DNA of 6,516 nt, taken from contig NZ_JBBAKG010000184.1 in the NCBI RefSeq assembly GCF_040403615.1, forward strand, positions 1-6,516, written 5' to 3'. This DNA comes from Haliscomenobacter sp. (lineage in GTDB: Bacteria > Bacteroidota > Bacteroidia > Chitinophagales > Saprospiraceae). Below the pieces are notes generated by a model. That model made no database searches, was not told the DNA's origin, and saw only the letters and a list, made by a program, of their open reading frames with translations. This document shows, one piece after another, positions 1 to 6,460 of the stretch (position 1 is the first letter of the stretch; each line of letters starts with the position of its first letter). Position numbers and translations under genes: made by a program.

Positions 1-52
1 ATGGGGATTGAAAATCCTTGTGTCGGTGGTTCGATTCCGCCCCAGGCCACCA
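1..52 (+). tRNA. tRNA-Phe (anticodon GAA), 3' portion only; the 5' half lies upstream of the window
   Basis: Anticodon stem GGGGA (3-7) pairs with TCCTT (15-19), including two G-U pairs. Loop TTGAAAA (8-14) has GAA at 10-12. Variable loop GTGTC (20-24). T-arm GGTGG-TTCGATT-CCGCC (25-41). Acceptor 3' strand CCAGGCC (42-48), discriminator A49, encoded CCA 50-52. This layout matches canonical bacterial tRNA-Phe as I remember it. Confidence 0.88.
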
Positions 53-53
53 T
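8..53 (+). repeat. attL: tRNA-proximal copy of the 46-bp direct repeat
   Basis: ttgaaaatccttgtgtcggtggttcgattccgccccaggccaccat is identical to 6415-6460. Identity breaks at 7 (a) vs 6414 (g) and at 54 (t) vs 6461 (c). Confidence 0.9.
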
Positions 54-168: not shown

Positions 169-1420
169 ATGACGTACAGCACAGACACAGTGGCAGTGAC
201 ACGGGAAACGAAACTCCGCTTGTCAGTTGCCGTACTCACAGCAGCACAACCCAGCATTTTGTATCTACGCGACGGCGACGTTGTGTTGTACAGACGCAGC
301 CGCAGTTTGTTGTATCAATGCCGCTACCGACTTGCTGACGGCACGTGGCACAGAGTCAGCACACGTAAAGCGTCAGTTGAACACGCCGTTGCTGTCGCTT
401 GTGATTTGTATGACGAAGCACGCTACAGACAACGCTTGGGTTTAGCACACCGAGCACACACGTTCGCACAAATCGCAGCGATTACAGTGGCAGAACTGCG
501 ACGCAAGATTGACGCAACGACTGGCAAAACAGCGTATCACAGCTACCTGTCGTGTATTGAACGCTACTTCCTTCCGTACTTTGCGGATAAACGTATTGAA
601 CAGTTGACACACATTGACATTTCCGAGTTTGAGGTGTGGCGTGACAGACAGATGCGACGCAAACCTAAAGCTTCAACGTTGCTGAACTTTGCAAGTGCGT
701 GGAACAGGATTGTTGACACAGCAGTGAAGCAGGGATACATCAGCGAACGTGTGCCAGTTCCCAAGTTGACAACACGCGGCGAGAAAAGCAAAACACGTCC
801 TGCGTTTACAGAACAAGAAGTAGAACAGTTGCTTGTGTTTATGGACACGTGGCGGCGACAGGGTAGTAGGTGTTGAACGTGAAATACGTCCGCTGCTACG
901 TGACTACATTGAAATCTTGTTGTACACAGGAATGCGACATGGTACAGAGGCGATGGGCATCTGCTGGAACAACGTGGAGTGGCACACGCACAAAGATGTG
1001 CGGTACATACGCATTTGGGTTGACGGCAAAACAGGTGGACGTTGGCTCATTGCAAAACACGCTGCAGTTGACGTGCTGCAACGTTTACAAGCACGACAGC
1101 AAGACATACAGCATATGTCATTTGACGAGTTGGTGACGCAGCGTGTCACGCGAAAACTGTTTCGTTTCACCGACGGCTATCAACCACACAGTTTTGTGGG
1201 AACGTTTAGACGGTTGATGCGTGACAGTGGACTTGCTTTGACAGCAGACGGGCAGAACCGTACGTTGTATTCGTTCCGCCACACCTATGCAACGCTGGAA
1301 CTGCTACGCAACAGTACGGACATACACACACTCAGCAAGCAGATGGGCAATTCAGCGGCAATGATTGAACGGCACTACTCAAAGTTGACGGCAACGATGG
1401 CTGCGGAGAGGTTGGCTTGA
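169..1420 (+). pseudogene. int: Tyrosine-type site-specific integrase, interrupted by a frameshift (or a sequencing error) around 850-876
   Basis: The N-terminal fragment 169-876 (frame 1) has an integrase-type N-terminus (LYRRSRSLLYQCRYRLADGTWHRVSTRKAS). The C-terminal fragment is readable in frame 2 up to 1420 (track ORF 833-1420). It carries LLYTGMRHGTE (Arg I), DGKTGGRW (Lys), YSFRHTYATLE (Arg II) and AAMIERHYSKL (Tyr nucleophile). The frames overlap at 833-876. Joined length would be about 415 aa. Confidence 0.8.
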
Positions 1421-2109: not shown

Positions 2110-2156
2110 GATGCATGCAGTAGTCTGTCAACCCCTTGTCCAGTTGCAACATGTTG

Positions 2157-2170
2157 TTGGATGTGAGAAT
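2157..2170 (+). repeat. Right copy of the imperfect 14-bp direct repeat flanking the membrane-protein gene
   Basis: ttggatgtgagaat vs 1501-1514 (12/14 identical). Confidence 0.35.
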
Positions 2171-2301
2171 GAAAGCAGCACACATATGCCACTACAGATT
2201 TAGGCCATAGCTCCGACATTCACACGCTGTCAAAATGGGCGTTGGTAGACTTCTCAATTGATTTAATATATTAAGACTACAGATTGCATAGCAAGCTGTG
2301 A

Positions 2302-2319
2302 ATGCTATTGAAATAGCAT
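2302..2319. promoter_or_regulatory. 18-bp palindrome, candidate operator or leader hairpin upstream of the H-NS-like gene
   Basis: ATGCTATT-GA-AATAGCAT has perfect 8-bp arms. It ends 34 nt upstream of the ATG at 2353. Confidence 0.4.
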
Positions 2320-2352
2320 AGAAAATTAAGACAATTATCACAAAGGAAAATT

Positions 2353-2655
2353 ATGGTAAACGAAACACAAGATCCACGTGCACTGTTAGCAAAAATGGAC
2401 GCAGAAGAAAAGTCTGCACGAGAAAAAGCTGACAAACTTGCAGAAGAAAATGCAAAGAAAAAAGAAGAACTTTTGGCGAAGTTGCGTGCAGCAGACTTGG
2501 AGGATGTACTTGAAAAAGTCAAGTTGCACGGCTTTACCGCTACAGATTTGCGTACAGCATTGAAGAAAAAGGGAGCGAAGAAAGCAACGCCCCGCAAAAG
2601 TACTGCACGTAAAACCACAGCACGCAAGTCAACACCACGTAAAAAGACAGCCTAA
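2353..2655 (+). CDS. H-NS N-terminal (oligomerisation) domain-like protein with a Lys/Arg-rich histone-like tail, 100 aa; no canonical H-NS C-terminal DNA-binding motif
   Basis: RBS AAGGA lies 5 nt upstream of the ATG. The N-terminus is a charged coiled-coil-like segment. The segment LEDVLEKVKLHGFTATDLRTAL resembles the 'hG(F/L)TxxDL' segment of beta/gammaproteobacterial H-NS-family proteins. The tail is KKKGAKKATPRKSTARKTTARKSTPRKKTA, and then the protein stops. Confidence 0.6.
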   Translation: MVNETQDPRALLAKMDAEEKSAREKADKLAEENAKKKEELLAKLRAADLEDVLEKVKLHGFTATDLRTALKKKGAKKATPRKSTARKTTARKSTPRKKTA

Positions 2656-2668
2656 TCAGTATGCTGCG

Positions 2669-3601
2669 TTGGTGTCGCAGTACACCACGCAGCTGCTGAT
2701 GCCAGATGTAGACAGGCGTATTGATGACATTCAATACGCTAACTACAGCATTCCAACGCTACAGCATGGTCAACGTCTGCTTGTGCAACGTGACCGTGCT
2801 GTCGGCAGTGCATTTGAATACGAGCACAGTGAAACTGAGTTTGTTGATGCACATGCTGCAAAGAAATATTCACTGCCAGACTTAGAGTTCAATGCTGCAT
2901 TGAGCGGTGAACAACTACTTCAACTGGGCAAGTTGAATGAGTCACTGCGTAAACTCGTTGCAGATAGGAACGTTTCCGACACGCAGTTGAAACGTGTGCT
3001 GGATGTGCAGCAGTTTGCAGACTACAAAGAGTCACTAACAGCAGAAATGCACAGCAGCGAAATCACATATGGCAGCGGAATGCCAGATGAGTTGCACACC
3101 TACAAGCAGCTGCTGAAGGATGCTGACTTTCAGCACAACAAGTTTGAGAAGATGAGCGTGGACAAAAGGTTGGGACGCAAACGATTCCAGCATCACACAT
3201 ACGAACGTGCGAAAAGCAGTGTTGACAAGCTGTACGAGTTGGCACTGGAGCAGTTGGATGCAACATGCAGTTCTGCAGACCCTATGTTGCTGCATGCGAT
3301 TGAAACATGGATGGACAGAGAGCTGGACTTCGATTCTGGTACAGACAGAAAGATCGGCATTGATGCTGAAACAATCCCTCGCATACGTGGCAGCAAAAGT
3401 AAAAATGCATTGGACAGTGGTTTGCCCAAGTTGAGCAAGCGTCTTAAGCGTAAAGAATGCCAGCTGCTGGCATTAAAAGACGCAGCGTGGAAATTGGCGT
3501 TCAAGCAGCCCGTGCAGTCAGAATCTACAGATGACGTGCAAGTTGTACGCAATGCAATACTGAATAGGCTGCTGCAGTTGCGAAATGATGACTTGTATTA
3601 A
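2669..3601 (+). CDS. Hypothetical protein, about 300-310 aa, acidic and helical, no motif I recognise; start uncertain (TTG 2669, GTG 2672 or ATG 2699)
   Basis: Long uninterrupted ORF with the island-typical GCA/ACA/TTG codon bias. It begins 14 nt after the upstream stop, so coupling is possible. No clear SD precedes any candidate start. Confidence 0.72.
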   Translation: MVSQYTTQLLMPDVDRRIDDIQYANYSIPTLQHGQRLLVQRDRAVGSAFEYEHSETEFVDAHAAKKYSLPDLEFNAALSGEQLLQLGKLNESLRKLVADRNVSDTQLKRVLDVQQFADYKESLTAEMHSSEITYGSGMPDELHTYKQLLKDADFQHNKFEKMSVDKRLGRKRFQHHTYERAKSSVDKLYELALEQLDATCSSADPMLLHAIETWMDRELDFDSGTDRKIGIDAETIPRIRGSKSKNALDSGLPKLSKRLKRKECQLLALKDAAWKLAFKQPVQSESTDDVQVVRNAILNRLLQLRNDDLY

Positions 3602-4170
3602 ACCAATTCAACTGCTTTGCGTTTCATGTCATCGTGCACGGTGATGTACTTTTGAGTTGTAGCAATGCTGCGGTGGCCAGCAAGTGACGCAAGCACAAAC
3701 ACACTAATACCTTGTGACGCAAGACTTGTGAGAAAAGTTTTACCGCCACTGTGCGAACTTGCAGCACGTACACCAGCACGTTTGTATAGCCAGTAAAAGT
3801 GCTGTGCAAGTGTGTTGGGTGTAAATGCACGACGTGGTCCTCTGTGTGTGGGAAACAAAGGTTGTGTGCTGTCAATCCAAGTGCGTGAATGAATGTATTT
3901 TTCGAGTTCTGCTTGTAGCCTGCTATTGATGTACACAGTTCGAGCGTGATTGTGTTTGACACGATGTGCAGCAAAGAAAACTTCTGCACGTACAGTGCCA
4001 TCTGCGTTTTGCACATCACCTAATGTCAATCCTGCAACTTCCGATACACGTAAGCCAGCCATTGCAGTCAGCATGAACATTGCACGATTGCGTCGTGCGT
4101 ATGCGTGTTGTGTTGTGTAGTTCAGCACTGTGTTGATTTCTTCTGCGGTAAGTGATTTTGCTGCTGTCAT
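3598..4170 (-). CDS. Catalytic-domain-only tyrosine recombinase, 190 aa, FimB/FimE-like architecture, non-canonical box II
   Basis: GGAG lies 6 nt upstream of ATG 4170; the track's TTG at 4182 overlaps this RBS. Motifs present: AMAGLRVSEV (Arg I), HRVKHNHARTVYI (Lys) and LAGHRSIATTQKYITV (His and Tyr nucleophile). Box II reads SHSGGKTF instead of HxxRH. There is no N-terminal arm-binding or core-binding domain: the protein starts directly at LTAEEINTVL. Confidence 0.85.
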   Translation of the reverse strand: MTAAKSLTAEEINTVLNYTTQHAYARRNRAMFMLTAMAGLRVSEVAGLTLGDVQNADGTVRAEVFFAAHRVKHNHARTVYINSRLQAELEKYIHSRTWIDSTQPLFPTHRGPRRAFTPNTLAQHFYWLYKRAGVRAASSHSGGKTFLTSLASQGISVFVLASLAGHRSIATTQKYITVHDDMKRKAVELV

Positions 4171-4340
4171 TTGTAGCTCCAAATAAAGTTAGTGTTGTAA
4201 GTGTGCTTTCTTAGTTGCTGAGTGAGCAATAGAAACCTGAAGGTTTGGCGGGTTGATGTGGATCTGTTTGTTTGTACGAGGTTGCAGTGCCGAACAAACA
4301 GTTCACGCATAGTGTTATGTCGTGTATTTACCGCTGCAGC

Positions 4341-4351
4341 TGTGTAAAAGC
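4341..4351. repeat. Left arm of an 11-bp perfect inverted repeat (candidate recombination site)
   Basis: tgtgtaaaagc is the reverse complement of gcttttacaca at 5245-5255. Confidence 0.4.
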
Positions 4352-4683
4352 CCTACAACACAGTTTTGACGGTGGGCATAGCCGTAGCGGACTACTTGTC
4401 TGAAAAGTCAACGCATAGGGCTGATTTGACGTGTTGCAGCGTGTGTTGCCCGAAATGGGTTCTACGCCCACAAAAATCACAGCTGCGGATTTTTTGCATC
4501 GGGTACTTAGGCTTTTCACCTGGTGATTTCCTACCTATACCACCTGCATGTGCACGAAAGTTTGGCCTTTGTATTTCTATTGTGCGTGTGATGTGTGTGG
4601 ATGATGAAAGGTGAACGCAGTTCACCTGTGCTGCAACATTGTTCGCTCGCTGTGCTCACTCTCAATGTCTTGCACATGCTGCT

Positions 4684-4712
4684 TTGCATTTGAATATTAT
4701 TTGTATTAGAAT
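4684..4712 (+). promoter_or_regulatory. Sigma70-like promoter candidate P1
   Basis: TTGCAT (4684-4689), 17-nt AT-rich spacer, TAGAAT (4707-4712). It points toward 5329, but no ORF follows for about 600 nt. Confidence 0.5.
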
Positions 4713-5101
4713 ATTTCGATAGATTCAACCTACACGAAGCCTTAAGCAACAGGCTTCGCGTAGTGAAAACATTTCGATGAGTTCTTTACTACAGCACTTG
4801 TGCACAACCATTTGTAGGTAAGGGCGGTTTCGCTGTCTCCTTTTACGTGCTACTGAAACGCAACGCATTTGTGAAAGCCATAGTGCCAACCTTCACAGCG
4901 TTTGCAAGATGCTCGAGTGGCATTGCTTGCTCGTGTCGCACAGTTTTCATTGCCGACTTTGTGCTCGAATCTTTTGCCTTGAGTCAATCAGAAAGCAAAT
5001 CCGAACGCATCCATTGTGGGTAGTGACAACAAGTCTCTGCTACCGCTCAGAACTTCCATCCCTGTGCACACCATTGGCCAGGTTTAGGGTGCATAACAAC
5101 T

Positions 5102-5154
5102 GAGTGCACAACTCTCTATCGGTAGTGATTGGAGTGCAAACACTGTGTATCGGT
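5102..5154 (+). repeat. Two imperfect 22/23-nt direct repeats sharing GAGTGCA and TATCGGT ends
   Basis: gagtgcacaactctctatcggt (5102-5123) and gagtgcaaacactgtgtatcggt (5132-5154). The first 7 and last 7 nt are identical. Confidence 0.5.
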
Positions 5155-5233
5155 TTTGTCTCCATAGTTATTTAGCAGTGACCAAATAAAACCTGCACAG
5201 AAGTGAGCGGTTGTTAGGCTGGTTTATGGCTTT

Positions 5234-5262
5234 TTGAGCAGATTGCTTTTACACACTAGATT
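5234..5262 (+). promoter_or_regulatory. Sigma70-like promoter candidate P2 for the 5329-6256 operon
   Basis: TTGAGC (5234-5239), 17-nt spacer, TAGATT (5257-5262). The spacer contains the right arm of the 11-bp inverted repeat. Confidence 0.35.
5245..5255. repeat. Right arm of the 11-bp perfect inverted repeat
   Basis: gcttttacaca is the reverse complement of 4341-4351. Confidence 0.4.
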
Positions 5263-5328
5263 TCGGTTGCTCACACCAAAAGACCGAAACTACAGTTAGT
5301 TCATTGCAACAAACAAAGGAGTAATGCA

Positions 5329-5769
5329 ATGACAGCATTGAGTGGATTAAAGTTGACAGCTGCACAAAAAGCAACATCACTGCCGCCTGTGCAGCAGCGT
5401 CGAAAAAAGTTGGTGAAACGTATTTGGGAGCAGATTGAACTTGCACGTGCAGAACAAGCTGGTACTAAATTTGCACCCGTCAAACTTCGCAGCTACACAG
5501 ACAAAGAATCGGGTGTACGCAAACAAGTTGAAACAAACAAGCGTGTCAAAGCGTGGTGGTTTACAGCAGACAACGGCAAGTTGGCGTTGAGTGTTCGCTT
5601 CGGACCCAAAGTGCTGGAGCTTGCAAAGGGCAAGTTTGCAGTTGAAGTTGCAGACAAAGCAGACTTGATCAACACATTAGAAGTGGTACGCACAGCAGTT
5701 GACAGCGGCGAACTTGATGATGCTATTGAAAACGCTGCGAAGAAACTGCGTGAAGGCTTTGCTCGTTGA
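5329..5769 (+). CDS. Conserved-looking hypothetical protein, 146 aa, function unknown
   Basis: Strong RBS AAGGAG (5316-5321) lies 7 nt upstream of the ATG. The composition is protein-like, with RRKKLVKRIWEQIELARAEQ, KRVKAWWFTADNGKLALSVRFG and GELDDAIE. I believe similar proteins occur in proteobacterial islands but cannot name a family with confidence. Confidence 0.85.
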   Translation: MTALSGLKLTAAQKATSLPPVQQRRKKLVKRIWEQIELARAEQAGTKFAPVKLRSYTDKESGVRKQVETNKRVKAWWFTADNGKLALSVRFGPKVLELAKGKFAVEVADKADLINTLEVVRTAVDSGELDDAIENAAKKLREGFAR

Positions 5770-5827: not shown

Positions 5828-6256
5828 ATGCGAATATTTGAGGCTGCCAGTGCAGAAGAACAGATGGCATTGTGGAAGTTGATTAGCGGCAGTGTGTGGA
5901 CTGCAATAGAACAACAAGTTCAGCAGCAACAGCGTGAACGTGCTGCACAGGCAAAACATGCTGCAAAGGGCAAAGGTAAACGTAAACGTGTTGCCGCACC
6001 AGCTGCAATAACATTGCCTCCGCCACCACAACGTTCTGCAGCACAGCCACAGTCTGCAAACGCTGCTGCGGTAAATCCTGTGCAGACTGCTGCAAACGTT
6101 GCAACTAACGGTGCACGTTCTGCATCTTCTGCTGCAGATGTTGATGGTGATGTTGCAGGCACTGCAGACGTTGACATTGATGCTGCAGATTTACAGCAGC
6201 AGAAAAGCCGTCATACGAGTCAAAAGACGGGTGTTTGGCCGAGCAAAAGCAGTTAA
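5828..6256 (+). CDS. Hypothetical protein, 142 aa, with a short structured N-terminus followed by a long low-complexity Ala/Gln/Pro/Asp-rich tail
   Basis: RBS GAGG lies 6 nt upstream of the ATG, which is 58 nt after the upstream stop. The N-terminus reads MRIFEAASAEEQMALWKLISGSVWTAIEQQ, then a KGKGKRKR patch, then PPPPQ and a disordered tail. Overlapping alternative-frame ORFs on both strands are explained by the low complexity. Confidence 0.68.
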   Translation: MRIFEAASAEEQMALWKLISGSVWTAIEQQVQQQQRERAAQAKHAAKGKGKRKRVAAPAAITLPPPPQRSAAQPQSANAAAVNPVQTAANVATNGARSASSAADVDGDVAGTADVDIDAADLQQQKSRHTSQKTGVWPSKSS

Positions 6257-6414: not shown

Positions 6415-6460
6415 TTGAAAATCCTTGTGTCGGTGGTTCGATTCCGCCCCAGGCCACCAT
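6415..6460 (+). repeat. attR: distal copy of the 46-bp repeat (displaced tRNA-Phe 3' remnant, not a gene)
   Basis: Identical to 8-53. The upstream bases (ggtgag) cannot form the anticodon stem, and no D-arm sequence lies upstream. Confidence 0.9.

Follow-up and report, generated by a model that had tools for sequence, protein, structure and literature searches.

A small tyrosine recombinase family of freshwater Burkholderiales mini-islands and a copy that has lost its second catalytic arginine, probably by a recent, private mutation

The window analyzed here is the whole 6,516-bp contig NZ_JBBAKG010000184.1 of assembly GCF_040403615.1, deposited as Haliscomenobacter sp., and most of it is an island of 6.4 kb whose two ends carry a perfect 46-bp direct repeat. 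On the minus strand (3598-4170), the island encodes a small recombinase of 190 aa, named sRec here, in which the second catalytic arginine (Arg II) is replaced by glycine. Our analysis indicates that this copy is most probably a private, recent, inactivating or strongly weakening mutant of a widespread, strongly conserved family, residing in a locked and decaying island. The replacement, present in this copy alone, goes back to one C-to-G substitution, which turned codon 143 from CGT into GGT at its first base. To our knowledge, Arg II contacts the scissile phosphate in every characterized tyrosine recombinase; by analogy, Gly143 should abolish or strongly weaken DNA cleavage, with folding and probably DNA binding spared.

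The Pfam profile PF00589 spans residues 6-180 of sRec (profile positions 2-170 of 172, E = 1.7e-23), and a score of 83.7 bits against a cut-off of 27.1 places the protein in the tyrosine recombinase superfamily. The protein begins five residues ahead of the profile match, without an N-terminal core-binding domain, and both HMMER and fold comparison align it only with residues ~100-275 of XerA and XerD, i.e., with their C-terminal domain. An AlphaFold model built from 63 homologues (pLDDT 92.5, pTM 0.87) found its best structural match in the catalytic domain of XerA only, with a TM-score of 0.78-0.80 by query length and 0.56 by target length. The start codon is the ATG at 4170, at the same residue where homologues begin, and it is preceded by a ribosome-binding site, TTTGGAG, conserved across the clade. 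At the other end, the stop codon (3598-3600, minus strand) lies in a 4-bp overlap with the end of the convergent open reading frame (ORF) for a 310-aa protein. The profile coverage and the Xer alignments bear out the first-pass annotation, made from the DNA letters of the window, in describing sRec as a catalytic-domain-only tyrosine recombinase of FimB/FimE size.

In HMMER alignments to XerA, XerD and archaeal Xer, the H-S-G-G-K of sRec stands opposite H-x-L-R-H. The catalytic positions are R41 (Arg I), K72, H140, Gly143 in place of Arg II, H166 and Y175, which amounts to five of the six residues of the full set R-K-H-R-H/W-Y. At the DNA level, codon 41 of the GLRVSE motif (4048-4050, minus strand) and the TAC codon of the catalytic tyrosine at position 175 (3646-3648, minus strand) are intact, and the Arg II position of box II is the glycine codon GGT (3742-3744, minus strand; ACC on the plus strand). 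The annotation had reported Arg I, the lysine, the histidine and the tyrosine as present and box II as H-S-G-G-K with glycine for Arg II, and both readings agree with the alignments.

The glycine itself is restricted to the window. A search of 5.8 billion clustered proteins returned 1285 sRec relatives, the best 120 of which are 69-92% identical and nearly all 190 aa long; 119 of these 120 carry HSGRKTF, and in the remaining one the regular expression matched no box II. The 90% cluster to which the window's own protein belongs has 38 members, with R143 in every listed member except two records of this same contig. Neither the six catalytic positions nor K144 vary among 138 aligned close homologues (69-93% identical), each of which has the complete catalytic set, and the window departs from them at residue 143 only. 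Gene copies recovered from genome and metagenome DNA agree: all 111 encode Arg143 (CGC in 77, AGA in 14, CGT in 11, CGA in 5 and AGG in 4), and the window alone has a glycine codon. Its nearest relative with DNA reads GGC CGT AAA against GGC GGT AAA in the window, a difference of one transversion. A second search, covering 1.84 billion representative proteins without a length limit, followed the family down to ~30% identity, where its members still measure ~190 aa; nearly all relatives are 185-200 aa. Box II is HSGRR or HSGRK across about 96 more distant full-length relatives, and the 63-sequence alignment puts the conservation of R143 at 90% or more. HSGGK is thus not a conserved feature of homologues: 138 of 138 proteins and 111 of 111 gene copies have arginine and the window is a singleton, an outcome that the annotation itself had named as refuting its reading.

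R143G is the only private change of the window's protein at columns conserved to at least 97%, the other family members averaging 0.59 such changes. As the sole private change of this kind, it is taken to be recent. Family-wide dN/dS lies between 0.06 and 0.16, which indicates that sRec forms a real family subject to strong purifying selection; comparisons involving the window fall at the upper end of this range (0.15-0.16). To judge from these substitution patterns, the window's gene was itself under selection until recently.

The allele is reproduced in a second assembly of the probable source run. Independent Logan contigs of the probable source run match window positions 2144-5047 with no differences at ~93x, so the glycine codon is not an assembly slip; Gly143 is the majority sequence of an abundant population. 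A second lesion was found in the main island integrase (169-1420, plus strand), a pseudogene in two frames from which 2 bp are missing after position 866. The integrase is intact in four relatives, with frames of 412-420 aa. In three other runs, belonging to at least two other studies, contigs that share 95-99% identity with the window have two extra bases at 866/867, and the probable source run lacks them at 99.6x depth. Since two independent disabling lesions affect its two recombinases, the island appears to be immobilized and decaying. The 2-bp deletion cost the island its main integrase, and the island is most likely locked in the chromosome and starting to decay; in a locked island, sRec would no longer have the job that protects it. 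A further hint of decay, and only a hint, comes from a conserved block upstream of sRec (4306-4321), where the window differs at five positions from relatives with otherwise identical flanks; more distant relatives also vary there.

Three other explanations of the glycine were weighed against this one. That it is a sequencing or assembly error, and that the real gene encodes arginine, would be natural for a single base in a metagenome-assembled contig, but the error-free agreement of the Logan contigs with the window makes this the least credible of the explanations considered. A functional, compensated active site, in which Lys144 stands in for the lost arginine and the protein represents a divergent subfamily, has in its favor the position of the lysine one residue past the missing arginine and the full conservation of the rest of the protein. 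Yet Lys144 is present in all 138 relatives that keep Arg143, and Lys or Arg at 144 accompanies Arg143 throughout the family; because it is the family norm, Lys144 is not compensatory. A subfamily would also require more than one member, and neither protein search contained a second in-frame HSGGK protein: the one other such string, P0123, loses its frame directly after it. With Arg II invariant in the 138 homologues and 111 gene copies, and at least 90% conserved down to ~30% identity, we regard a compensated site as highly improbable.

It is also conceivable, though rather unlikely in our estimate, that the Gly143 protein is kept as a cleavage-dead DNA-binding protein, for instance to block a site or to regulate its own gene. 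Residue 143 aside, the gene is intact, its ribosome-binding site is good and its fold conserved, and a precedent exists in MobK, whose Y179F variant lost cleavage and kept DNA binding (PMC8152469). Against such a role, no more than one contig has the allele, the island's integrase is itself broken, and the five differences in the most conserved upstream block from the nearest relatives fit poorly with preserved binding. The first-pass annotation had offered a compensating lysine, a divergent subfamily or an inactive derivative; the homologue survey leaves the last as the likeliest of the three and speaks against the other two.

Several points weigh against the interpretation of sRec as a recent mutant in a decaying island. 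The dN/dS of pairs with the window is raised only slightly, and apart from residue 143 the gene displays no decay, having neither a frameshift nor more private changes than other members. The co-occurrence of both lesions is a sample of one. A glycine at residue 143 of the 95-99% identical strains, beside an intact integrase, would make the allele an older, tolerated one. As to the family behind the mutant, a choice between relaxase and resolvase for its intact members is tentative on sequence, hhalign of the family alignment to the relaxase TcpM giving only 46% probability.

Of 401 genomes sampled from the Limnohabitans family, 17 contain the protein family to which this copy belongs, some with as many as eight copies; it is also present in named Limnohabitans and Hydrogenophaga assemblies and many freshwater metagenomes. 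Its genomic context is stable. Among 34 distinct sRec copies whose upstream sequence extends for 3 kb or more, 27 have a divergent gene for a DUF6641 protein upstream, and the spacer between the two genes, measurable in 41 copies, ranges from 1.1 to 3.0 kb (median 1.44 kb). Across the loci compared, sRec, a non-coding spacer of at least 1.1 kb and a divergent DUF6641 gene thus appear as a fixed module of freshwater Burkholderiales mini-islands, usually accompanied by a P4-type integrase, a lysine-rich protein and a 310-aa protein. Related islands sit at tRNA genes, sometimes as tandem arrays. Such arrays occur at L041/L042 (G284:C7:100000-131900) and also at L043, L045, L083 and L090, with up to three islands in succession in ~15 kb, each carrying its own sRec, spacer and DUF6641 module. 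In one further locus (L116:5115-7012), an sRec homologue is split by a ~1.3-kb insertion, with residues 1-120 and 118-190 on the same strand.

A scan of viral contigs returned no close relatives of sRec. Catalytic-domain-only relatives, 31-37% identical, are found in phiCbK-type Caulobacter jumbo phages (e.g., NC_019405.1:114398-114934) and likewise on Legionella plasmids; in the one plasmid examined (NZ_CP045733.1:110203-110787), the gene adjoins replication and partition genes. DUF6641, the constant divergent partner of sRec (5329-5769 in the window, plus strand), matches PHROG 31551 (E = 2.7e-21) and is thus present in phages too. Its model (pLDDT 87) consists of a helix, a β-sheet and two helices, for which neither PDB nor BFVD offered a significant match; among viral proteins, an unnamed one came closest (E = 4.7e-3, TM-score 0.46).

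In the window, the spacer occupies 4171-5328. The annotation had noted an ORF-free region beside sRec, and no conserved ORF was found in it; compared with relatives, this spacer shows indels of 1, 8 and 13 nt. The spacer contains a full-length match to the Polynucleobacter-1 RNA (RF01718, 92.4 bits) at 4980-5114 on the minus strand, the strand of sRec, ~810 nt upstream of its start. Weinberg et al. (2010, PMC2864571), who discovered this motif, entered it among the probable cis-regulatory RNAs, with Burkholderiales and fresh water as its source. The same RNA is found at the same place in six related loci (L060, L061, L101, L082, L083 and L105). Only a subset of islands carries it: the idea that it is a universal partner of sRec was dropped, as the motif is missing at the gathering score from 14 genome loci and many metagenome loci, where a different sequence fills the same spacer. 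The center of the spacer, ~4735-5130, which holds the RNA, is its best-conserved part and shows only a few differences per 100 nt from relatives that are 82% identical over the whole spacer; the sRec gene of these relatives is 84-85% identical at the nucleotide level, below the spacer center. As the conserved block exceeds the 141-nt Rfam model, the RNA may be ~400 nt long.

The probable source run shows heterogeneity in this region. In one of its contigs, of depth 94, position 4850 is followed directly by 5018, so that 167 nt with part of the Polynucleobacter-1 match are absent, and the summed depth over 4797-5232 is 145-183 against ~93 elsewhere. The Polynucleobacter-1 cassette is probably shared by another element of the sample. 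RNA-guided targeting was considered and rejected, the spacer sharing only chance-level 8-9-mers with the island ends attL and attR on both strands. In a related island, a Betaproteobacteria toxic small RNA (RF02278, 56.7 bits) was detected at the edge of the contig (L071:10368-10428).

The region upstream of sRec holds candidates for a cognate site. Relatives with 44-56% identity to sRec have a 24-bp palindrome, CAAAG-N14-CTTTG, 129-162 nt upstream of the gene (L106:2939-2962, L055:4458-4481, L115:3707-3730, L107:3665-3688 and others); an example is CAAAGAAAA-TTGTAG-TTTTCTTTG. It occurs once per element and has the shape of a tyrosine-recombinase core site, with ~9-bp arms and a 6-bp center (CAAAGAAAA-N6-TTTTCTTTG and similar). 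The wider pattern CAAAG-N0-40-CTTTG is present in 13 of 63 distinct upstream regions and in 0.5% of shuffles. In the window's clade the palindrome is weak, and its left half, CCAAAGAGAAT, is kept at the same distance. The most conserved upstream block of this clade, GAC[C/T]AAAGAGAAT..., is the one at 4306-4321 (minus strand). Closer to the gene, at 4264-4301 (minus strand; 94-131 nt upstream of sRec), lies an inverted repeat with 9-bp arms, CTGTTTGTT-N20-AACAAACAG, which is kept in the nearest relatives and is a candidate protein-binding or DNA-processing site. A single site per element fits a resolution site, an origin of transfer (oriT) or an operator, and not an inversion switch.

This last point bears on the comparison with FimB and FimE, which had been drawn from the architecture of the protein and had led to the view of sRec as a DNA invertase. 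Under that view, the family would flip a promoter-bearing segment of the spacer. FimB and FimE (PRK09870, PRK09871) are, like sRec, proteins of ~190-200 aa that consist essentially of the catalytic domain only; sRec aligns with the invertase model over nearly its whole length (12-177 of 200), and an 11-bp perfect inverted repeat, at 4341-4351 and 5245-5255, brackets 893 bp and was proposed as the pair of recombination sites. Unlike these invertases, sRec scores far below the NCBIfam cut-offs (32.1 bits vs. 221 for PRK09870 and 18.7 vs. 222 for PRK09871), against 83 bits with XerA. The proposed sites are not conserved: in the 82%-identical relatives, substitution has altered one arm and an indel interrupts the other, and about five such 11-bp repeats are expected by chance in 6.5 kb. 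Nor were orientation variants found, all blastn spacer matches in 22 related loci being colinear with sRec, with no strand-switching joints in four runs. Together with the single palindromic site per element, this leaves the invertase reading with very little probability.

For the intact members of the family, we infer that sRec would act on a single conserved site ~100-160 bp upstream of its own gene in the excised island. The nearest described design is that of the MOB_M relaxases MobK, MpsA and TcpM, which are tyrosine-recombinase-like and without a core-binding domain, the oriT lying immediately before the gene on its upstream side (PMC8152469, PMC9299015). A 2026 preprint reports that such relaxases are the commonest on the chromosomes of its data set, have been systematically missed, and are in 96% of cases near an integrase and often annotated as integrases (bioRxiv 10.64898/2026.01.13.699239). 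Like MobK of pIGRK, MpsA of the MpsA/MpsB-oriT-sgm-sRNA system of SGI1 and TcpM of pCW3, sRec consists solely of a catalytic domain of the DNA_BRE_C type and is encoded in a small integrative element beside a true integrase, which is the architecture described for the class (PMC8152469, bioRxiv 10.64898/2026.01.13.699239). It also has a conserved cis region with inverted repeats directly upstream of its gene, and the inverted repeats and palindrome at -94 to -162 are compatible with the expectations for an oriT without proving one. The box II of TcpM, H-x-x-R-R, resembles the H-S-G-R-[K/R] of the sRec family. The differences are that TcpM has 266 aa, sRec being shorter and free of extra terminal elements; that the hhalign match (E = 2e-4) reflects a generic catalytic-domain similarity and no specific relationship; and that the window's sRec has no Arg II. 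That intact members nick the upstream site as MOB_M-type relaxases, for mobilization by a helper conjugative element, is on this basis a serious possibility that we would put somewhat short of even chances.

The main alternative, a more tentative one, is that intact members recombine two copies of the site and so resolve multimers or tandem arrays, as in the single-site systems XerS/difSL, XerH/difH and Cre/loxP. The likeness lies in the position of the gene beside one palindromic site, which in the 44-56% clade has 24 bp with ~9-bp arms and a 6-bp center, in Xer proteins being the best sequence and fold matches of sRec, and in the location of distant relatives beside rep/par genes on Legionella plasmids. 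In contrast to sRec, XerS, XerH and Cre clamp the DNA with a core-binding domain at their N-terminus, and the lack of this domain argues against a resolvase of the Xer/Cre kind. In the window's clade, where the palindrome is weak, there are only the conserved block resembling a half-site and the 9-bp repeat with its 20-nt spacer.

The presence of a structured RNA upstream on the sRec strand recalls SGI1, in which an sRNA encoded between oriT and mpsA is also required (PMC8152469, PMC9299015). The module could accordingly be imagined as an SGI1-like mobilization unit, in which sRec nicks a site ahead of its gene, a reaction for which the structured RNA upstream is required; Polynucleobacter-1 here, and other RNAs elsewhere, would by analogy take the role that the sgm-sRNA plays for MpsA. 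We consider this unlikely. Unlike in SGI1, no MpsB-like core-binding partner was found beside sRec; DUF6641 was examined as a candidate and rejected, its predicted fold not being a SAM-like helical bundle. If the SGI1-like arrangement were true, the window's sRec would be a natural dead-enzyme control.

The remaining features of the island are as follows. Its left end, attL (8-53, plus strand), is the 3' part of a tRNA-Phe(GAA) gene and forms the perfect 46-bp direct repeat with attR (6415-6460, plus strand). Downstream of the integrase pseudogene, the plus strand encodes a membrane protein (1582-2109), a lysine-rich protein of 100 aa (2353-2655) and the 310-aa protein (2669-3601), and beyond the DUF6641 gene a protein of 142 aa (5828-6256). 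The 310-aa protein had no matches in Pfam, NCBIfam, PHROGs or PADLOC, and its Atlas model is poor and uninformative (pLDDT 0.37). The PADLOC defense-system models returned nothing for any island protein.

The contig is probably mis-binned in its assembly, as several lines of evidence suggest. The assembly has 6.9 Mb and 46% GC, and its RpoB has only ~50% identity with the Limnohabitans and Hydrogenophaga proteins. It has three intact tRNA-Phe genes, all of them different from the tRNA fragment at attL, and the att repeat has no further occurrence elsewhere in the assembly. Within its size class, the contig is the strongest tetranucleotide outlier of the assembly, and all relatives of the island, as well as the RNA motif, come from Burkholderiales.

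Together, our results suggest that the arginine was lost by a mutation private to one dying island and that no new catalytic solution is involved; alone, the loss carries little weight. It does serve as a caution: when a catalytic residue deviates in one metagenomic copy, relatives need to be checked before a subfamily is called. Of wider interest is the family behind the mutant. Catalytic-domain-only tyrosine recombinase proteins are abundant in small tRNA-inserted islands without visible means of transfer, and the sRec family is a real but uncharacterized relative of a recently recognized class, the MOB_M relaxases. If the family acts as MOB_M relaxases, this would explain the spread of 5-7-kb islands and maybe provide a function for an RNA motif that has been an orphan since 2010.

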